Of a stretch of 64,000 bases of DNA, positions 25,541 through 33,569 are shown piece by piece. Every line of letters starts with the position of its first letter. Within the stretch, counting starts at the first letter, position 1. The notes beneath the pieces were generated by a model. That model did no database searches. It worked only from the letters and a program-made list of their open reading frames with translations, and was not told where the DNA came from. This DNA comes from Escherichia phage dhabil, in the sequence record MN850621.1. One strand, 5' to 3'. The position numbers and the translations under genes are program-made.

Positions 25541-26401
25541 ATGATTAAGCAAACTGGTAAATTACTAATTGACGTTGGTGAAATTGGTAATGCTAGCACC
25601 GGCGACATTCTTTATGACGGTGGTGTTAAACTAAACACCGACTTAAACAACATCTATAATACCTTTGGTGACCAACGTAAAACCGCTCTTACAGGCGAAA
25701 CTACCGGTCAGAAATTACATGCCACTGGATACTATCAAAAATTTGGCGATACCGACCAAGCAAGTTCTGTTGACCTTGGTTCTTTGGTTGATATTGATGC
25801 TTCTACAGGTTCTATAGTGTTAACCACGGTAAAAGGAGCCGTAGGTGAAGGTATTGAAATAATTAACTCTAATGGAAGTATTTCAGCTACCAACTATCTT
25901 GAAATCCGTATATTGGATTCGTTTTTAAACCATCCTACATCAACCCTAAGAATAGTAACTCCTTATACTAGAGTTCTATTATGGTGTGTAAGTGACATCA
26001 ACGGTATAGCTGTATGGGATTATTCTATTGAGAGCATGTTTGGTGATAAACGAGTGCCGTTAAATAGAACATATAACATTTCTAACGTACCTAGAGATAT
26101 ACCGGTGGTTTTTTCAGGTCAATATTCTTTGGTCAAGCTTTTAGTTACCGCAGTAAATGCTAATGAAACCATTTATAAAGCTTCTGAATATCTTTTGTTT
26201 ATGGATAACCAAGCTAAAAAAATATATTCCACCGAATATGCTGTTATCCGTCGTGGACAGACCACTGATGAAGACGAAATTTACAAACTCGATTTTAAAT
26301 TTGATACCTCTAACTATATAGTGGCTACGGCATCATCTGAAACCCCTATGAGATTAGCAATTAAAGTCGTAGATACCCAAACTATTGGAGTTCCATTATA
26401 A
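25541..26401 (+). CDS. 9: baseplate wedge / long-tail-fiber socket protein gp9
   Basis: 286 aa; size and order as T4 gp9. Confidence 0.85.
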   Translation: MIKQTGKLLIDVGEIGNASTGDILYDGGVKLNTDLNNIYNTFGDQRKTALTGETTGQKLHATGYYQKFGDTDQASSVDLGSLVDIDASTGSIVLTTVKGAVGEGIEIINSNGSISATNYLEIRILDSFLNHPTSTLRIVTPYTRVLLWCVSDINGIAVWDYSIESMFGDKRVPLNRTYNISNVPRDIPVVFSGQYSLVKLLVTAVNANETIYKASEYLLFMDNQAKKIYSTEYAVIRRGQTTDEDEIYKLDFKFDTSNYIVATASSETPMRLAIKVVDTQTIGVPL

Positions 26402-28212
26402 TGAAACAAGAATTAAAAATAGGCCAGGCCGTTGATGATGGCTCCGGAGATTACCTGCGCGCAGGTGGTCTAAAAATCAATAATAACTTTAACGAGTTAT
26501 ACTATCAATTAGGTGATGGAGATAATCCTCACGCTGCTGGTGCCTGGAAACAATATTCTACTGCAGATGGTCCTTTACTTAATGCTGTTATGGGTCATAG
26601 CTATACGTTGAATACCCAGGGTGGAAGGATTAACGTTCAACTTCCTAAAGGTACCCCTTCAGAATATAACTTTGTAATTCGTTTGCGTGACGTTTATTCT
26701 TCTTGGCAAGCTAACCCTGTAACAATTATACCTGCTCCAGGTGATACGATTAAAGGCTCTGCTGTACAGGTTGAAATAGCCCGTAACTTTGCTGACCTTG
26801 AACTTGTCTATTGTGCTCCGGGTCGCTGGGAATATGTTGAGAACAAGCAAGTTAACCGTATTCCAAATAACGACCTCGCTACTGTAGCAACCAAACAGTT
26901 TATTGCTACTGAAGGCCAAACCGATTTCTTGGATATTTTCCCAGGATTAACCTATAATATTTCTAGTCTTAGCGTAATTCAACGTGGTAACACCTTGTTT
27001 TATGGTGTAGATGATATATTTGATGAAGCCACTTCAGAGTTCGGTAGCCCAGGCGCTAACCCAGGCGAATTGGTTGAATTGAACGGTAAAGATATCCGTT
27101 TGAAATATCCATGTGAAGCCGGTGATACAGTAATCATTAAATCCTATAACGATGGATTGGCCCAATGGCGTAGTTCTTATAATCGTCGTGATATTACTAT
27201 TTTAGATAAAACCCTTACCCATGAAACCACAGTTAACGGTTCTAAAGTAGTATTAGACCTTTCTACCATACAGACTATTACCGCGGTGGAATTAAATGTT
27301 TCTCCTACAAGCCCTATTAACCCTAATGCTTGCCAGGTAATGCTTAACAGTACTTTATTGCACCAAGCTGGTACTGCAGGGTTCCCTGCTTTCTATTGTG
27401 AAGGTGTTGATACTGATGATGCAGCTCTTTGTGCTGATTCGGGTGGTGTATGGACACAATCTAAATCTGATTATATTTTGAATATTGCAGATGACGATAA
27501 AATCGAATCATTCGAATTTGGACGTAAATTAGAACATGGTGATATCCTTACCGTAATTTGGTATAATAATGATATTGGTACTACCATGACTATTGATGAG
27601 ATTTTGGATACTACAAATGATATCTACATTTCTCAAGGTCCTTCGGTGTCTTTAACCGGCCAGGTTCGTATTACTGATGTGGATAATCCATTTTCTCCTA
27701 ACTTTGAACCTGTTGCAGAATCCGAAGTTTCTATTAATACGGCTGCAGTGATGTTCGATTTGTTCCATCCAATAGGGACAATTTACGAGAACACGGTGAA
27801 CCCTAATAACCCTGCAACTTATATGGGTATGGGTAGTTGGAAACGTTTATCTGATAGTTTCCTTGTAGGTTGGTCGCCGGATGCAGATTCATTGTTCAAT
27901 GCGAACAATAACGATTTGGATTCTTCTGGTATTCCTAAATCTACCGCAGGTGGAACAGGTGGTTCTCATAATATTTCGATTAAATATGAAAATGTTCCTG
28001 AACTTAATACAGATGACAAGGTATTAGTTGCTGATGATAATGGCCCTATTGTTATCGGTGGATGTTTGGTAGACCCGGATGCACAAGGTCCTGCTTATAC
28101 CAAATATCGTGAAGATAAAGCTACAATAAACAAGCAGCAATCTACAACGCCTATTCCAATTAATACATTGCCTCCATATACAACCGTTTATCGCTGGGTG
28201 AGGATTGCGTAA
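26401..28212 (+). CDS. 10: baseplate wedge protein gp10
   Basis: 603 aa; ATGA coupling to gene 9; size and order as T4 gp10. Confidence 0.85.
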   Translation: MKQELKIGQAVDDGSGDYLRAGGLKINNNFNELYYQLGDGDNPHAAGAWKQYSTADGPLLNAVMGHSYTLNTQGGRINVQLPKGTPSEYNFVIRLRDVYSSWQANPVTIIPAPGDTIKGSAVQVEIARNFADLELVYCAPGRWEYVENKQVNRIPNNDLATVATKQFIATEGQTDFLDIFPGLTYNISSLSVIQRGNTLFYGVDDIFDEATSEFGSPGANPGELVELNGKDIRLKYPCEAGDTVIIKSYNDGLAQWRSSYNRRDITILDKTLTHETTVNGSKVVLDLSTIQTITAVELNVSPTSPINPNACQVMLNSTLLHQAGTAGFPAFYCEGVDTDDAALCADSGGVWTQSKSDYILNIADDDKIESFEFGRKLEHGDILTVIWYNNDIGTTMTIDEILDTTNDIYISQGPSVSLTGQVRITDVDNPFSPNFEPVAESEVSINTAAVMFDLFHPIGTIYENTVNPNNPATYMGMGSWKRLSDSFLVGWSPDADSLFNANNNDLDSSGIPKSTAGGTGGSHNISIKYENVPELNTDDKVLVADDNGPIVIGGCLVDPDAQGPAYTKYREDKATINKQQSTTPIPINTLPPYTTVYRWVRIA

Positions 28213-28877
28213 TGACTTTAACAGAAATGAAAAGCGGGTTAAAATCCCGCCTTGCCGACTTTTTAGAATTTTCTTTTACAACTAATCAACCTGCCGCAGT
28301 GGCAGGTCAACGCCCTATTGGTGGTCCATCGGCAAACCAAACCCGAAAAGGCGTTTATTACCCTACAGTCCAAAGTGCTATTGATGATATTGCTTTCCGC
28401 GCAGAACTTCCTGTTAATGCGGTGGTAACTACTACCGAAAACAGAGCGCCTGGCTTTATCCAACAATCTGATAAATTAACTTTCTCTGGCTCCATTTCTT
28501 CTGGTGGCGAATTAGGCGATACGGTTATAATTAAGGTATTTGGTTTGCCTGTTGAAGTTATTGTGGGTGATTCTTCGGTTCTGGTTGCTTCTAAAGTTAA
28601 CGATGTTTTTATAAGCGCTATTGCTAATAGTTATATTTTAGCAGAAACCTCTATCGACCCTCTGGACCAATCTACTTTAAACATTAAATATAACGACTAC
28701 CAAAACCATATTTTTGAGCCATTTAAACAGGCTGGATGTACCATTTCCCAAACTATAGTCCAAGAGCCTCGTGCAGGTTATGGATACTGGGAATATTTAG
28801 GTTCTACTACAGAATCTATGACCGGTGGAACTATAAATGGAACTACAACTTTATATCACTATAAGCGAGTAAGTTAA
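28212..28877 (+). CDS. 11: baseplate wedge / short-tail-fiber attachment protein gp11
   Basis: 221 aa; coupled to gene 10; size and order as T4 gp11. Confidence 0.85.
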   Translation: MTLTEMKSGLKSRLADFLEFSFTTNQPAAVAGQRPIGGPSANQTRKGVYYPTVQSAIDDIAFRAELPVNAVVTTTENRAPGFIQQSDKLTFSGSISSGGELGDTVIIKVFGLPVEVIVGDSSVLVASKVNDVFISAIANSYILAETSIDPLDQSTLNIKYNDYQNHIFEPFKQAGCTISQTIVQEPRAGYGYWEYLGSTTESMTGGTINGTTTLYHYKRVS

Positions 28878-30409
28878 TGTCTACAAATACACTAAAACAT
28901 ATAAGTGATAAATCGGAATTTAAAACATTCGACCCTACCGGGTCGAATTTTGACCCTAGTATTACCAACGTCCAAGACGCCTTATCATCCATTTCTGCTA
29001 TAGGTGTTACAGGTAATATTCCGGCCGCATCCGAAACAGAACAGGGTATTATTAGATTAGCCACCCAACAAGAAGTTATTGATGGCACTGATACTTTCTC
29101 TGCTGTGACCCCGGCTACTTTAAAAGGCCGCTTGGACATTCCTACTCAAGCAACTGAAACCTATGTAGGTATCACACGTTATGCTACTAATGATGAGGCC
29201 ATCGCTGGGACAGAGACCCAGGCTGCAATCGTAGCATCATCTTTGAAGGCTACTATAGATTATACATTCACCAATCGTTTAGCCACAGAGAACACTACAG
29301 GTGTACTCAAGATTTCAACCTTGCCAGCGGCTTTAGCGGGTACAGATGATACTACGGCTATGACGCCTCTTAAAACCGCACAGGCAATTGGAGCCGCTAC
29401 ATCGGCCTTACCAACTTATGCAAGTGCAACACAAACTACTGAAGGTATTGTTAGAATCGCGACAAATGCCGAAGTGGCAAATGGCACATTGACTAATGGC
29501 GTCGCAATTTCTCCATCAGGGCTTATTTCTTTAACTTCTAATACTTCTCGACGTGGACTGGTTCAATTAGCCACTGGAGCTGAAGTTTCGGCCGGAATTG
29601 ATGCAAATAAAGCTATTACGCCTCAAACCCTTTTGTCAAGAACGGGTAATACCGGTAGAATAGGCCTTCTTAAAACCACAACTACCGTGGGTTCTGGCGA
29701 TGGAAGTACAGCATTGGCATATAATGCTAACGTTATTTCTACCACCGGTGGTACTATTAATGGTACTTTAAACGTTAATGGTACTTTACGTCGTAATGGG
29801 CGTGATGTTGTTACTGTCGACCAATTAAAAGATTCTGTTCCTATTGGTACTATCGTTATGTGGGGAGGCCAAATTAACAATATCCCTGCAGGTTGGGCCG
29901 TTTGTGATGGTGGTAACTCTGGTGAGCAAGGATTCCGAAACGTAGTTGGTAGTAAATGGGGCTCAACTGGTGCTCGTCCTGACTTCCGTGGATTATATCC
30001 TAGAGGTGCAAACCAAACTAATGACGGTGGATTAAAAGAATGGGACGCCAACGTTAGAATTAGAGACGCCAAAGGTAACGACGCCAAAGGCAAACCAAAA
30101 TTAGGTGTAGGTTGTGGTTCATATGGACACGGTACAGTACAAGCTCAACAACTTCGGTTCCATAAACATGCAGGTGGTTTTGGTGAACATGATAACGCAG
30201 GTGCTTTTGGTAACACTGTTCGTTCCAACTTTGCCGGTACTCGTAAAGGATTAGACTGGGATAACCGTTCTTACTTTACAAACGAAGGATACGAAATTGA
30301 CGGTTCCGGTTCACGAGATTCAAGAACTACCCTAAACAGTGAAGGGTTAATTGGTAACGAAAACCGTCCTTGGACTATGTCCATCCTATTCATTATTAAA
30401 GTTGCTTAA
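28877..30409 (+). CDS. 12: short tail fiber protein gp12
   Basis: 510 aa; repetitive Thr/Ala-rich N-terminal fibre repeats and C-terminal receptor-binding domain; synteny. Confidence 0.85.
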   Translation: MSTNTLKHISDKSEFKTFDPTGSNFDPSITNVQDALSSISAIGVTGNIPAASETEQGIIRLATQQEVIDGTDTFSAVTPATLKGRLDIPTQATETYVGITRYATNDEAIAGTETQAAIVASSLKATIDYTFTNRLATENTTGVLKISTLPAALAGTDDTTAMTPLKTAQAIGAATSALPTYASATQTTEGIVRIATNAEVANGTLTNGVAISPSGLISLTSNTSRRGLVQLATGAEVSAGIDANKAITPQTLLSRTGNTGRIGLLKTTTTVGSGDGSTALAYNANVISTTGGTINGTLNVNGTLRRNGRDVVTVDQLKDSVPIGTIVMWGGQINNIPAGWAVCDGGNSGEQGFRNVVGSKWGSTGARPDFRGLYPRGANQTNDGGLKEWDANVRIRDAKGNDAKGKPKLGVGCGSYGHGTVQAQQLRFHKHAGGFGEHDNAGAFGNTVRSNFAGTRKGLDWDNRSYFTNEGYEIDGSGSRDSRTTLNSEGLIGNENRPWTMSILFIIKVA

Positions 30410-30418
30410 GGAAATAAA

Positions 30419-32581
30419 ATGATTGACAAACTGAGTATTAAAGAACTTCCGTTTGTCGATGGTGTACCTGATGCATCCCAAGAGCGTATCCGTTGGATAC
30501 GCAATGGCGAATGTATTGAAGGAGCCACGACTAAATACGGTCACGACGGTAATTTGAATGCCCCTGCTTTAGGAGTACAAACTAACGTAGTTAGATTAGA
30601 AGAAAACAGCATAGCTTCTAAAGACAAAATTAACGAGCTTGTGGATAACGTTAATTTGATTAATGAAGCCCTTGATATTTCTACTGATACGGCTGTTATT
30701 CAGCAAATTGAAAAGAACCGTGTCGATATATTGGCTGTAGATGAAAAGGCTTCCGAGACTAAAAAGGACTTAGGCGACTTAACAGTTAATTTTAATTTTT
30801 TAGAAGAAGATGTCGGTTATTATGACCCGTCTTTAGATGGCCCGTATCTCACTGTTAGAGAAAATATAAATCTTCTTAAATCAGAAATTGGCCATTATGC
30901 AAACCAAGATATAAACAGCCAGCCGCTTCCTCCCGGTGAAACTTCTGAAGCCACCGGTATGAAACGTCGTATTATGGATAATACCAGTGCTATTGTCGAC
31001 CATTCGCAACGTATAGATACCCTTGAAAAGAATTATGAAGATTCTGATGTAGGTCAACTTGGGCTTAAACTTAACGAAATTCGTGAAGAACTTGGTCCAC
31101 ATATTGATACGGTAGGTAAACAACCTGCTTATACTAGAATTTCAGCTCTCGAAACGGCAGCCGTAAACTTTAATGAATCGATAGATTCTATCAAAACCAG
31201 TATAGGCTTTAATAAGGGCTCTATTGATACCAGAGTAACTACATTAGAAACTAAAACGTCTACTTTAGAAAACACTGTTAATAATGGATTGGTCCCTAGG
31301 GTTACTGCAGTAGAAACTGCCATCGGTACTGCCGATACCCCTACGTCTATTAACGGCAGATTGGGCGGCTTGCGTACTGATGTTAATGAGTTAAAAACCA
31401 TAGTTGGTGCTAGTTCATCTGAAGGGCTTCGTTTCCAGGTTTCTGATATAGACCGTAAAATCGGTGCGGATGTGAGTCCGGCAGCAGGAACAATCAATAA
31501 ACGTTTGAACGACCTTACAACTCAAGGCAATACTTCAGCCTCTACTATTCAGGATTTGCAGGCCGAAATTGGTAATAACCAAACAGGCATCAAAGGTTCT
31601 ATTCTTAAAATCACCAACCAAATTGAAGGAACCAACCCTAACGGTAGTACCGTAGAAGAACGAGGATTAATAAACTCGGTTAAAGGCCTTGAAGCTCAGA
31701 TGCCTACTAAATTGGGTGAAGCACCTACTGATGGTAAATTGTATGGACGTAAGGATTCGGCATGGACGGAAATCCTTGATGGTACTACAGAAATCGATGC
31801 AGTAAAAGCTTCTTTATTGGTTACTGATGGTAAGGTATCAGCCTTAACGGCTAGAGTCGATACTAATGACGCCTCCATTTCTTCTCTTGATACCAGAACT
31901 GGTGCTTTAAACACTTCAGTAGGAGAAATTAAAGCCGATGTTGTTTTGTTAAAATCCAAAGACACTGAGCAAGATAATCGTATTACTGCTTTGGAAGAAA
32001 GTGACGTAACTATTAATGGCAAAATAACCGCATTGGAAACCAAGACGGATACAACCGATTCTGATGTTACGGCTTTGGCTTTAGATGTGAGTTCTATAGA
32101 ATCACAATTAACCCCTATTAAAGCCGATATAACCAAGAATAAAGGTGATATCGTTACTTTAACCGGGCGAGTAGCAGCTAATGAAGGCGAAATTACTGAT
32201 ATTAAATTAGATACCGCTAAAATAGCTCCTTTAACAACTCGTGTAACAACAGCTGAAGGTAAAATAACTACACTTCAGTCCGATTTAGCCGCAGTTAAGG
32301 TTGAATCGGATAAAGTAGAAGGAATTGATACTCGATTAGGTACATCTGAAGGTAAAATAACTACCCTTGAAACAGGTTTGGCTGCCGTTAAAGTTGAATC
32401 TGATAAAGTTGCCGATTTAGGAACCCGTTTAACCGCCGCCGAAGGTAAAATTACAGCCTTAGAAACAGAATTAGCTAAACGTCCGCCGGTGGCTCCTGCT
32501 GCAGACGGACTCCCGTACGTTCTGGTTGATAACGCATGGGTATTATTGTCTGATTTTGTGACTTTAAACTCAGCACCATAA
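30419..32581 (+). CDS. wac: fibritin (neck whiskers), extended form
   Basis: 720 aa coiled coil ending in a foldon-like C-terminus (…GLPYVLVDNAWVLLSDF); longer than T4 fibritin (about 487 aa). Confidence 0.85.
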   Translation: MIDKLSIKELPFVDGVPDASQERIRWIRNGECIEGATTKYGHDGNLNAPALGVQTNVVRLEENSIASKDKINELVDNVNLINEALDISTDTAVIQQIEKNRVDILAVDEKASETKKDLGDLTVNFNFLEEDVGYYDPSLDGPYLTVRENINLLKSEIGHYANQDINSQPLPPGETSEATGMKRRIMDNTSAIVDHSQRIDTLEKNYEDSDVGQLGLKLNEIREELGPHIDTVGKQPAYTRISALETAAVNFNESIDSIKTSIGFNKGSIDTRVTTLETKTSTLENTVNNGLVPRVTAVETAIGTADTPTSINGRLGGLRTDVNELKTIVGASSSEGLRFQVSDIDRKIGADVSPAAGTINKRLNDLTTQGNTSASTIQDLQAEIGNNQTGIKGSILKITNQIEGTNPNGSTVEERGLINSVKGLEAQMPTKLGEAPTDGKLYGRKDSAWTEILDGTTEIDAVKASLLVTDGKVSALTARVDTNDASISSLDTRTGALNTSVGEIKADVVLLKSKDTEQDNRITALEESDVTINGKITALETKTDTTDSDVTALALDVSSIESQLTPIKADITKNKGDIVTLTGRVAANEGEITDIKLDTAKIAPLTTRVTTAEGKITTLQSDLAAVKVESDKVEGIDTRLGTSEGKITTLETGLAAVKVESDKVADLGTRLTAAEGKITALETELAKRPPVAPAADGLPYVLVDNAWVLLSDFVTLNSAP
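32238..32475 (+). repeat. in-frame tandem repeats (~90 bp unit) encoding coiled-coil segments of fibritin
   Basis: Repeated AEGKITTL(Q/E)(S/T)(D/G)LAAVKVESDKV… units visible in both protein and DNA. Confidence 0.6.
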
Positions 32582-32587
32582 TAAAAA

Positions 32588-32606
32588 GGGCTTCGGCCCT
32601 TTTTTG
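32588..32606 (+). terminator. rho-independent terminator after wac (gggc-UUCG-gccc + U6)
   Basis: GC stem with UUCG loop followed by tttttt. Confidence 0.65.
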
Positions 32607-32607
32607 C

Positions 32608-32615
32608 TATAAATA
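32608..32615 (+). promoter_or_regulatory. late promoter TATAAATA for gene 13
   Basis: Exact consensus immediately 3' of the wac terminator. Confidence 0.6.
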
Positions 32616-32636
32616 CGGTTATTAGAGGAATAAAAT

Positions 32637-33569
32637 ATGGCAAGCGAATCATTCAACCCTAAGCAACTCAAGGACGCTATTCTGCGCCGCCTGGGTGCAC
32701 CGATTACAAATATTGAAGTAACTACAGACCAAGTATATGATTGCATCCAGCGTGCTCTAGAGCTCTACGGTGAATACCATTATAACGGGTATAACAAAGG
32801 ATATCAGGCTTTTTATATCGGCCACGACGATGAAGAAAAATTCCGTAATGGTGTATTCGACCTTAAAGGACGTAATATATTTGCAGTAACACAAATTTTG
32901 AGAACTAACGTTGGTTCTTTAACATCTATGGATGGGCAAGCAACTTATCCCTGGTTTACAGATTTTGTATTAGGCTTAGCTGGTATTAATGGTGGGCTTG
33001 GGTCTTCATGTAACAGTTTCGGACCTAATGCCTTCGGCGCCGACCTTGGTTATTTTACGCAGCTAATGCAATATCGTTCTATGATGCAGGACCTTTTGGT
33101 TCCACTACCAGATTATTGGTATAACGATGCCACTGAACAATTGAAGGTAATGGGTAACTTTGTTAAAGGCGATTTTATTGTAATCGAAGTTTATACTCGT
33201 TCTTTTAATGGGGTTGATTCTATGGTTGGAAATACCGTAGGCTATGGTTATGCTTCGGCCTGTGGTGAAAACGAATGGAGCCCAGGTGCTATTTGGGATA
33301 ACCCATCTCGTCGTATTTCCGGTATGCGCGTAGGCGAGGACCTCGGCCTTCAGGACGGTGCATATAATAACCGTTGGGTTAAAGATTATGCCACTGCATT
33401 GGTTAAAGAAGTCAATGGCAATATTCTAGCCAAACACCAAGGCATGCAACTTGCAGGTGGAACCACTGTAGATGGTATTCGATTGATTGAAGAGGCTCGT
33501 TTAGAAAAAGAACGTCTTCGTGAAGAATTAGATTTGCTCGACCCACCAACACCTATTTTAATTGGATAA
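32637..33569 (+). CDS. 13: neck protein gp13
   Basis: 310 aa; size and order as T4 gp13. Confidence 0.85.

Follow-up and report, generated by a model that had tools for sequence, protein, structure and literature searches.

The long wac gene of Escherichia phage dhabil probably encodes a JS98-type fibritin with two foldon-like motifs and a coiled-coil spacer that differs in length among close relatives

Why is the neck-whisker protein fibritin, the product of wac, so much longer in Escherichia phage dhabil than in T4? The question arises from a 64,000-nt stretch of the dhabil sequence (MN850621.1), hereafter the window, whose numbering is used for all positions in this work. The wac coding sequence occupies 30419..32581 on the + strand, begins with ATG and is the sole long open reading frame (ORF) there. 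It encodes 720 amino acids (aa) followed by a stop codon, which is 233 residues more than the 487 aa of T4 fibritin (720 - 487). The initial annotation, made from the DNA letters, had given these lengths correctly and had attributed the extension to near-identical tandem repeats of about 30 aa upstream of a foldon-like C-terminus. In our analysis the repeats explain only part of the added length, and an internal foldon-like motif at aa ~430-456 had been overlooked. We estimate a probability of about 90% that the gene is the wac of a JS98-like Dhakavirus with the JS98-type architecture, i.e., two foldon-like motifs and a coiled-coil spacer of variable length between them.

The assignment to fibritin rests first on homology along the protein. 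The product matches phrog_1056 (fibritin neck whisker) with E=6e-194, and by phmmer residues 5-432 of T4 fibritin (PDB 2bsg_A, 487 aa) are collinear with residues 6-430 of the query at E=1.5e-73; 3j2o_A was also aligned. This T4-collinear part (30434..31708, + strand), delimited by phmmer and AlphaFold2 (AF2), comprises the N-terminal neck-attachment domain and the segmented coiled-coil shaft. The conserved neck-attachment domain of ~50 aa is present, with aa 6-84 matching the T4 N-terminal fragments PDB 1ox3/2ibl (E ~1e-14), and P17, Q21 and W26 within it are invariant across 56 homologues. The shaft is predicted as helices with loop breaks, and a heptad signal runs through aa 47-430 (z=4.8). 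The AF2 model is that of a monomer, with 56 aligned homologues as input (mean predicted local distance difference test, pLDDT, 74; predicted template modelling score, pTM, 0.22), and only its local secondary structure was used. In the databases, the protein is a 100% match to an entry already named fibritin neck whiskers protein [Escherichia phage dhabil] (cluster P0001). Over wac, the nucleotide identity is 99.4% to phage dhaeg and 98.8-99.2% to phage CLB_P2, both members of Dhakavirus (JS98-like Tevenvirinae). Several other Pfam and PHROG names that came up (HMMR_N, CALCOCO1, CENP-F, SbcC, hemolysin, minor head protein) were rejected as compositional, being below the cut-off in Pfam or lying within the coiled coil.

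Immediately 3' of the T4-collinear shaft the protein reads KLGEAPTDGKLYGRKDSAWTEILDG (aa ~430-456), and here the first of the two foldon-like motifs is found. This internal motif, aa 430-456 (TKLGEAPTDGKLYGRKDSAWTEILDGT; 31706..31786, + strand), was recognised by Pfam, by identity to the T4 foldon and by a hairpin in the AF2 model. The Pfam Fibritin_C model derives from the C-terminal ~90 residues of T4 fibritin, and its match in the dhabil protein covers aa 373-452 and not the C-terminus. The internal core EAPTDGKLYGRKDSAW, at aa 434, is identical to the T4 foldon EAPRDGQAYVRKDGEW in 10 of 16 positions without a gap, and the hydrophobic WVLLSTF in the tail of the T4 motif is replaced by WTEILDG. 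The second motif is the C-terminal foldon-like domain, aa 687-720 (KRPPVAPAADGLPYVLVDNAWVLLSDFVTLNSAP; 32477..32578, + strand), supported by T4 foldon identity, PDB 1avy and AF2. It contains VAPAADGLPYVLVDNAW at aa 691, and the C-terminus PVAPAADGLPYVLVDNAWVLLSDFV shares 13 of 25 positions with the T4 foldon when one 1-residue gap is allowed. PDB 1avy (T4 fibritin) matches aa 645-714 with E=0.01. Beta-hairpins are predicted at 442-445/448-451 in the internal motif and at 700-703/706-709 in the terminal one, the latter followed by a short helical turn.

By comparing the dhabil protein with T4 fibritin (487 aa; PDB 2bsg, 3j2o, 1aa0, 1avy), the common plan and the difference both become clear. 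The two share the collinear N-terminus and shaft, a foldon-like C-terminus and the flanking genes 12 and 13. On the other hand, T4 has one foldon, aa 457-483, after one short coiled-coil segment, whereas the dhabil protein has a motif at 430-456, then ~230 coiled-coil residues and then a second foldon. Fibritins with a single foldon and only 455-459 aa, such as that of Pectobacterium phage PM2 (P0033), carry the motif at aa 432-438, which is the site of the internal motif here. They have the same shaft and end at that position, and the dhabil protein is ~265 residues longer. Both motifs occur in 18 of 65 homologue clusters, and in these the internal motif always starts at aa 427-444, while the spacer from motif to motif varies from 37 to 321 aa (242 aa here). 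In side comparisons, three foldon-like motifs were seen in the fibritins of Escherichia phage EcS1 (P0037, 607 aa) and Serratia phage CHI14 (P0042, 584 aa) and in the fibritin P0039 (550 aa). They lie at about aa 436, 465 and 526-584, so that two of them are merely ~29 residues apart.

The two-foldon architecture is already published. In the JS98 type of fibritin, two T4-like foldon motifs flank a coiled-coil spacer whose length varies (Letarov and Krisch, 2013, PMC3797505, citing Latypov et al., 2007), and it is one of eight C-terminal variant forms catalogued in that paper. There, it was also reported that JS98 fibritin, like that of T4, forms trimers using the foldon motifs alone, that its folding needs no dedicated downstream chaperone gene, unlike that of the AehI type, and that one deletion could turn the JS98 type into the T4 type (PMC3797505). 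The gpwac of JS98 itself (AAU29287.1, 751 aa) has the same genus, gene position and two-foldon layout as the dhabil protein and 72% amino acid identity to it. Its terminal foldon region (RPPVAPAADGLPYVLVDNAWVLLSDFV) is identical to that of dhabil, and the layout differs solely in the number of 31-aa repeat units in the spacer (three full units versus two). In the gpwac of JS98-C3 (ABW89019.1; EU224420; 515 aa) the two motifs are likewise present, with a very short spacer between them.

The internal motif could be a decaying relic of an ancestral C-terminus that has no present role, the terminal foldon alone being at work. The conservation of the two motifs bears on this in both directions. Among the 18 two-motif representatives, mean column conservation is 80% for the internal motif and 97% for the terminal one, the WTEILDG tail has lost the hydrophobic character of WVLLSTF, and some relatives (P0017-P0020, 525-547 aa) have no internal motif that matches the pattern, all of which would fit decay. 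However, the core AP.D.K.Y.R....W.E does not vary across the 18 representatives, the most distant of which has 54% overall identity to the query, and the hairpin is predicted at this site as well. In the T4 foldon, Glu5 and Arg15 form an inter-subunit salt bridge. The internal motif keeps Glu/Asp and Arg at these two positions. In the terminal foldon, both are occupied by hydrophobic residues (Val/Ala and Leu), and AP is set apart from DG by one additional residue. Moreover, both motifs are called foldons by Letarov and Krisch (PMC3797505), and JS98 fibritin folds with these alone. Thus, we regard a functionless relic as rather unlikely and retain a JS98-type protein with two foldon-like motifs.

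What lies between the motifs is mostly not repetitive. The first and larger part, aa 455-606 (152 aa; 31781..32236, + strand), is a heptad coiled-coil spacer, identified from self-similarity, AF2 and PDB 4lin. Its self-similarity peaks solely at multiples of 7 (lags 14, 63, 49, 42, 21 and 28; z 5.5-6.3), and the lag analysis found no 31-aa repeat in aa 455-606. The repeats, 2.6 copies of a 31-aa unit, begin only after it. Unit 1, aa 607-637 (TRVTTAEGKITTLQSDLAAVKVESDKVEGID; 32237..32329, + strand), came from a direct-repeat search and scores 54.9 bits with a profile hidden Markov model (HMM) of the 31-aa unit; unit 2, aa 638-668 (TRLGTSEGKITTLETGLAAVKVESDKVADLG; 32330..32422, + strand), was found by the same two methods. 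A partial third unit of 18 aa follows at aa 669-686 (TRLTAAEGKITALETELA; 32423..32476, + strand; HMM positions 1-18, 17.7 bits). It is the last coiled-coil segment, joins the C-terminal foldon-like domain directly and corresponds, in a weak alignment, to the last pre-foldon segment of T4. Over aa 455-686 the self-similarity at lag 31 is beyond chance (z=9.1, 300 shuffles), the next lags being 14, 7 and 21. The repeats placed at 32238-32475 in the initial annotation are therefore real, and with two 31-aa units and an 18-aa partial they extend over 32237-32476. In our reading, the 31-aa unit may be four heptads plus a 3-residue stammer; hydrophobic positions common to the units are 3, 10, 13, 17, 20, 22, 27 and 30. 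AF2 predicts long helices at 455-581 (pLDDT up to 94) and 603-685 between the two hairpins. Because an alpha-helix rises ~1.5 A per residue, the spacer (231 residues) would add ~34 nm to the whisker and each unit ~4.6 nm if extended. As a side observation, the long metagenomic fibritins P0036 (644 aa) and P0046 (662 aa) have no internal foldon and one T4-type terminal foldon (GAGYITEAPKDG...). They are lengthened by 14-aa repeats of the GKVSALETSNTxLT type, a different way of extending the whisker.

Described as near-identical, the repeats proved to be well diverged. Units 1 and 2 are identical in 21 of 31 residues and in 67 of 93 nt (72%); of the 18 codons that differ, 8 are synonymous and 10 non-synonymous, and no identical stretch exceeds 19 nt. 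Tandem Repeats Finder returned no repeat in 30000-33000 even at a minimum score of 30, because the units are too diverged. This divergence bears directly on the idea that the extension arose recently, in this phage only, by expansion of near-identical tandem repeats. Its attraction is that no self-similarity in the C-terminal third is stronger than the 31-aa periodicity. However, 31-aa units account for no more than 80 of the 233 added residues and the non-repetitive heptad coiled coil for 152, so the claim of an extension by tandem repeats holds for 80 residues, while two thirds of the added length are non-repeated heptads after the internal foldon-like motif. With 18 of 31 codons different and 72% nucleotide identity, the units are old and diverged, and this is not a fresh expansion. 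In addition, the spacer and second foldon are common to 92 phage records, and the architecture has been described since 2007/2013. We therefore judge a recent private expansion very improbable and keep to the older, widely shared JS98-type spacer.

The same figures help with the refuting explanation that the initial annotation had itself named, that the repeat number is an assembly artefact with units collapsed or expanded. Tandem repeats are classically prone to misassembly, and copy-number differences among close relatives could in principle be assembly noise. Here, the nucleotide identity is 72% and no exact match exceeds 19 consecutive bases, so that reads of ordinary short length can cross the units and tell them apart. 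An identical protein of 720 aa is encoded by six contigs in further public assemblies, e.g., ENA ERZ27280638 (174 kb) and Logan SRR34902438 (62 kb). The two-unit layout is also present in phages ESCO10, MX01 and IME540, whose nucleotide identity ranges from 92.6% to 74%, and every variant is in frame and differs by whole or defined part-units. The chance of an artefact is practically negligible, and we take two full units and a partial one as the true state of the dhabil gene.

To follow the unit number through the genus, wac was translated from ten Dhakavirus genomes and the units were counted with the unit HMM. Genus-wide, wac lengths are 514, 515, 529, 689, 720, 734, 737, 751, 768, 772 and 799 aa, and they change by 31-aa steps to which a 17-aa part-unit may be added. 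The 689-aa protein of dhaeg has one full unit and the terminal partial; two full units are found at 720 aa in the window, ESCO10, MX01 and IME540; UP19 (734 aa) has two units and a part-unit; JS98 and NC-G (751 aa) have three full units; VR5 and EcWhh-1 (768 aa) have three units and a 17-aa part-unit; and JS10 and IME08 (799 aa) have four units and a 17-aa part-unit. CLB_P2 (772 aa) is irregular, with sub-duplications of 7 and 14 aa. At the other extreme, the spacer is nearly gone in AnYang (514 aa), where the junction VKASLLVAEGKITALETEL shows that the deletion runs from the DGKVSALT motif to the EGKITALET motif. Natural short forms with both foldon motifs and the spacer nearly lost are AnYang (514 aa), JS98-C3 (515 aa) and Bp7 (529 aa).

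The closest relatives are the most informative. In nucleotide alignment with the window, dhaeg lacks exactly one 93-nt unit, with breakpoints in GTTGAATCNGATAAAGT, which is common to adjacent units. CLB_P2 has 156 nt more, in frame (52 aa), at the same place, after GGTTTGGCTGC. The sequence flanking both indels is virtually identical. The unit number differs between phages that are otherwise ~99% identical, and it has therefore shifted while about 1% of other sites changed. The suggestion that this region is a site of length variation is upheld by the comparison of the relatives (-93 nt in dhaeg, +156 nt in CLB_P2, 514-799 aa across the genus). Judging from the breakpoints, unequal homologous recombination or replication slippage between the 93-nt units would most likely have altered the unit number. 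A larger event of the same kind, from DGKVSALT to EGKITALET, would remove almost the whole spacer in AnYang and JS98-C3 (514-515 aa). Since the AnYang junction lies between two copies of xGK(I/V)(T/S)ALx, the repeat-mediated process appears to be active over ~200 aa too.

By megablast, JS10 and JS98 match the window wac only over the last ~300 nt of the gene (nt 1866-2163, 90%). AnYang-like phages match only its first 1415 nt (91%). From these part-gene matches, it follows that wac is a mosaic, in which the end with the repeats and the terminal foldon has been conserved or exchanged independently of the shaft.

The origin of the spacer is a separate question, because it could have been captured from the fibre gene of another phage, as a coiled coil like that of the P22-like tail needle gp26, instead of having been duplicated within wac. 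Residues 498-626 (31910-32300 of the window) match the gp26 coiled coil (PDB 4lin) with E=2.3e-7 over 127 residues, with RVTTAEGxIxxLQ units in common, and this likeness supports the coiled-coil conformation of the spacer. The phrog_1219 entry, tail needle protein, matches at aa 594-635, and there are weak matches to Bacillus and Lactobacillus phage tail proteins. Against capture, scores are inflated between coiled coils of similar composition, and the last pre-foldon segment of T4 (IKANETNIASVTQEVNTAKGNISSLQGDVQALQ) aligns weakly with aa 595-627, so the unit may be native to wac. Moreover, one in-gene duplication or deletion suffices according to Letarov and Krisch (PMC3797505). Capture of the spacer is thus a less likely origin, although a real contender. 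Membership of the whole protein in the P22-like gp26 family was considered and rejected: the likeness is confined to aa 498-626, the N-terminus is that of fibritin and the genomic context is the T4 neck module. Tail needle gp26 has the RVTTAEGxIxxLQ-type unit in common with the dhabil protein but differs from it in its N-terminal domain and virion location. The likeness to 4lin may indicate that unrelated phage fibres share coiled-coil repeat modules or have converged on them.

By homology with the fibritins of T4 and JS98, the N-terminal domain would bind the gp13/gp14 neck. Three chains would then form a parallel segmented coiled coil, with the foldon motif or motifs nucleating trimerisation. 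The resulting whiskers and collar would aid long-tail-fibre attachment and hold the fibres retracted (up) until adsorption is favoured.

The length of the proximal long-tail-fibre protein gp34 was compared with that of wac, gp34 lengths being tblastn match spans with JS98 gp34 (1349 aa) as the query. The spans form three classes. Full-length matches cover 4047 nt in JS98, MX01 and Bp7, whose wac products have 751, 720 and 529 aa; the span is 3966 nt in JS10, NC-G and VR5 (wac 799, 751 and 768 aa). For dhaeg and ESCO10 (wac 689 and 720 aa) it is about 3870 nt. The proposal that longer whiskers match longer fibres was dropped, as gp34 length does not co-vary with wac length. The gp34 of dhaeg and ESCO10 is only ~70% identical to that of JS98, so that the tail-fibre module is mosaic within the genus.

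Several points weigh against the overall interpretation. As gp34 does not vary in length with wac, the relevance of the extra length to T4-style contact between whisker and fibre is uncertain. Trimerisation, whisker length and long-tail-fibre binding in dhabil rest on homology, and recombination or slippage is read from breakpoints rather than seen directly. In the AF2 model, pLDDT is ~68 at both hairpins and <50 at aa 580-599, and a trimer or a straight rod is unsupported by it.

We hypothesize, at low probability, that the whisker has two functional ends. The first (aa 1-456, ending with the internal foldon) would correspond fully to a short fibritin and contact the fibre in T4 style. The second, formed by the spacer and the terminal foldon, would be a distinct arm of adjustable length, in which the number of 31-aa units shifts by fast recombination, in the manner of a contingency locus. 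The fixed position of the internal motif together with a spacer of 37-321 aa, and the absence of co-variation with gp34, are consistent with a two-ended whisker. If true, the distal arm could tune how the phage senses its environment, or how it touches a partner other than the tail fibre, for instance the host surface or adjacent fibres. Alternatively, and equally speculatively, the distal arm may be just tolerated.

The surroundings of wac are those of a T4-type neck region. On the 5' side lie homologues of T4 gp10 (26401-28212), gp11 (28212-28877) and gp12 (28877-30409), and on the 3' side gp13 (32637-33569), followed by gp14 and gp15. The order gene 12 - wac - gene 13 is as in T4-type phages and is also annotated in JS98, JS10, IME08 and VR5. 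Between wac and gene 13 there are 55 nt, with no extra ORF, which hold a hairpin and a late-promoter motif. The hairpin, AAAAAGGGC-UUCG-GCCCUUUUU (32583..32604, + strand), stands right after the wac stop, is followed by T residues and is terminator-like; its RNA fold has -12 kcal/mol (z=-2.6). The consensus terminator scan listed no terminator after wac and missed this UUCG hairpin. Three nt past it, and 22 nt upstream of the gene 13 start, is TATAAATA (32608..32615, + strand), the T4 late-promoter consensus. Copies of TATAAATA in the window number 19 against 8.2 expected, mostly on the + strand and in 37-46 kb. The antisense ORFs within wac (e.g., 32275-32652, 125 aa) showed nothing indicating a gene, although their homologues were not searched for.

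Database labels for this region are uneven. In ESCO10, wac is wrongly annotated as phospholipase; its neighbours are mislabelled too, the homologue of gp12 being called baseplate wedge subunit and the gene that occupies the place of gp14 baseplate hub subunit and tail lysozyme. The wac of CLB_P2 is labelled hypothetical protein, and a JGI homologue (P0014) is called predicted nucleic acid-binding Zn-ribbon protein. In IME08, the annotated start of wac lies 69 nt upstream of the correct one, within gene 12.

For the biology of these phages, the significance is slight beyond the tidying of annotation, where several database labels of wac are wrong. The two-foldon architecture is already known, and the protein is already in GenBank as fibritin. 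Within the searchable literature library, no paper was found stating that the spacer length steps by one 31-aa unit, and the sole, minor addition of this work is that close relatives differ by whole 31-residue units. Nevertheless, dhabil, dhaeg (one unit fewer) and CLB_P2 (52 aa more) form a natural spacer-length series among near-identical isolates. Together with AnYang and JS98-C3, which are natural near-complete deletions of the spacer, this series is usable to probe how whisker length relates to fibre retraction, adsorption and environmental sensing.

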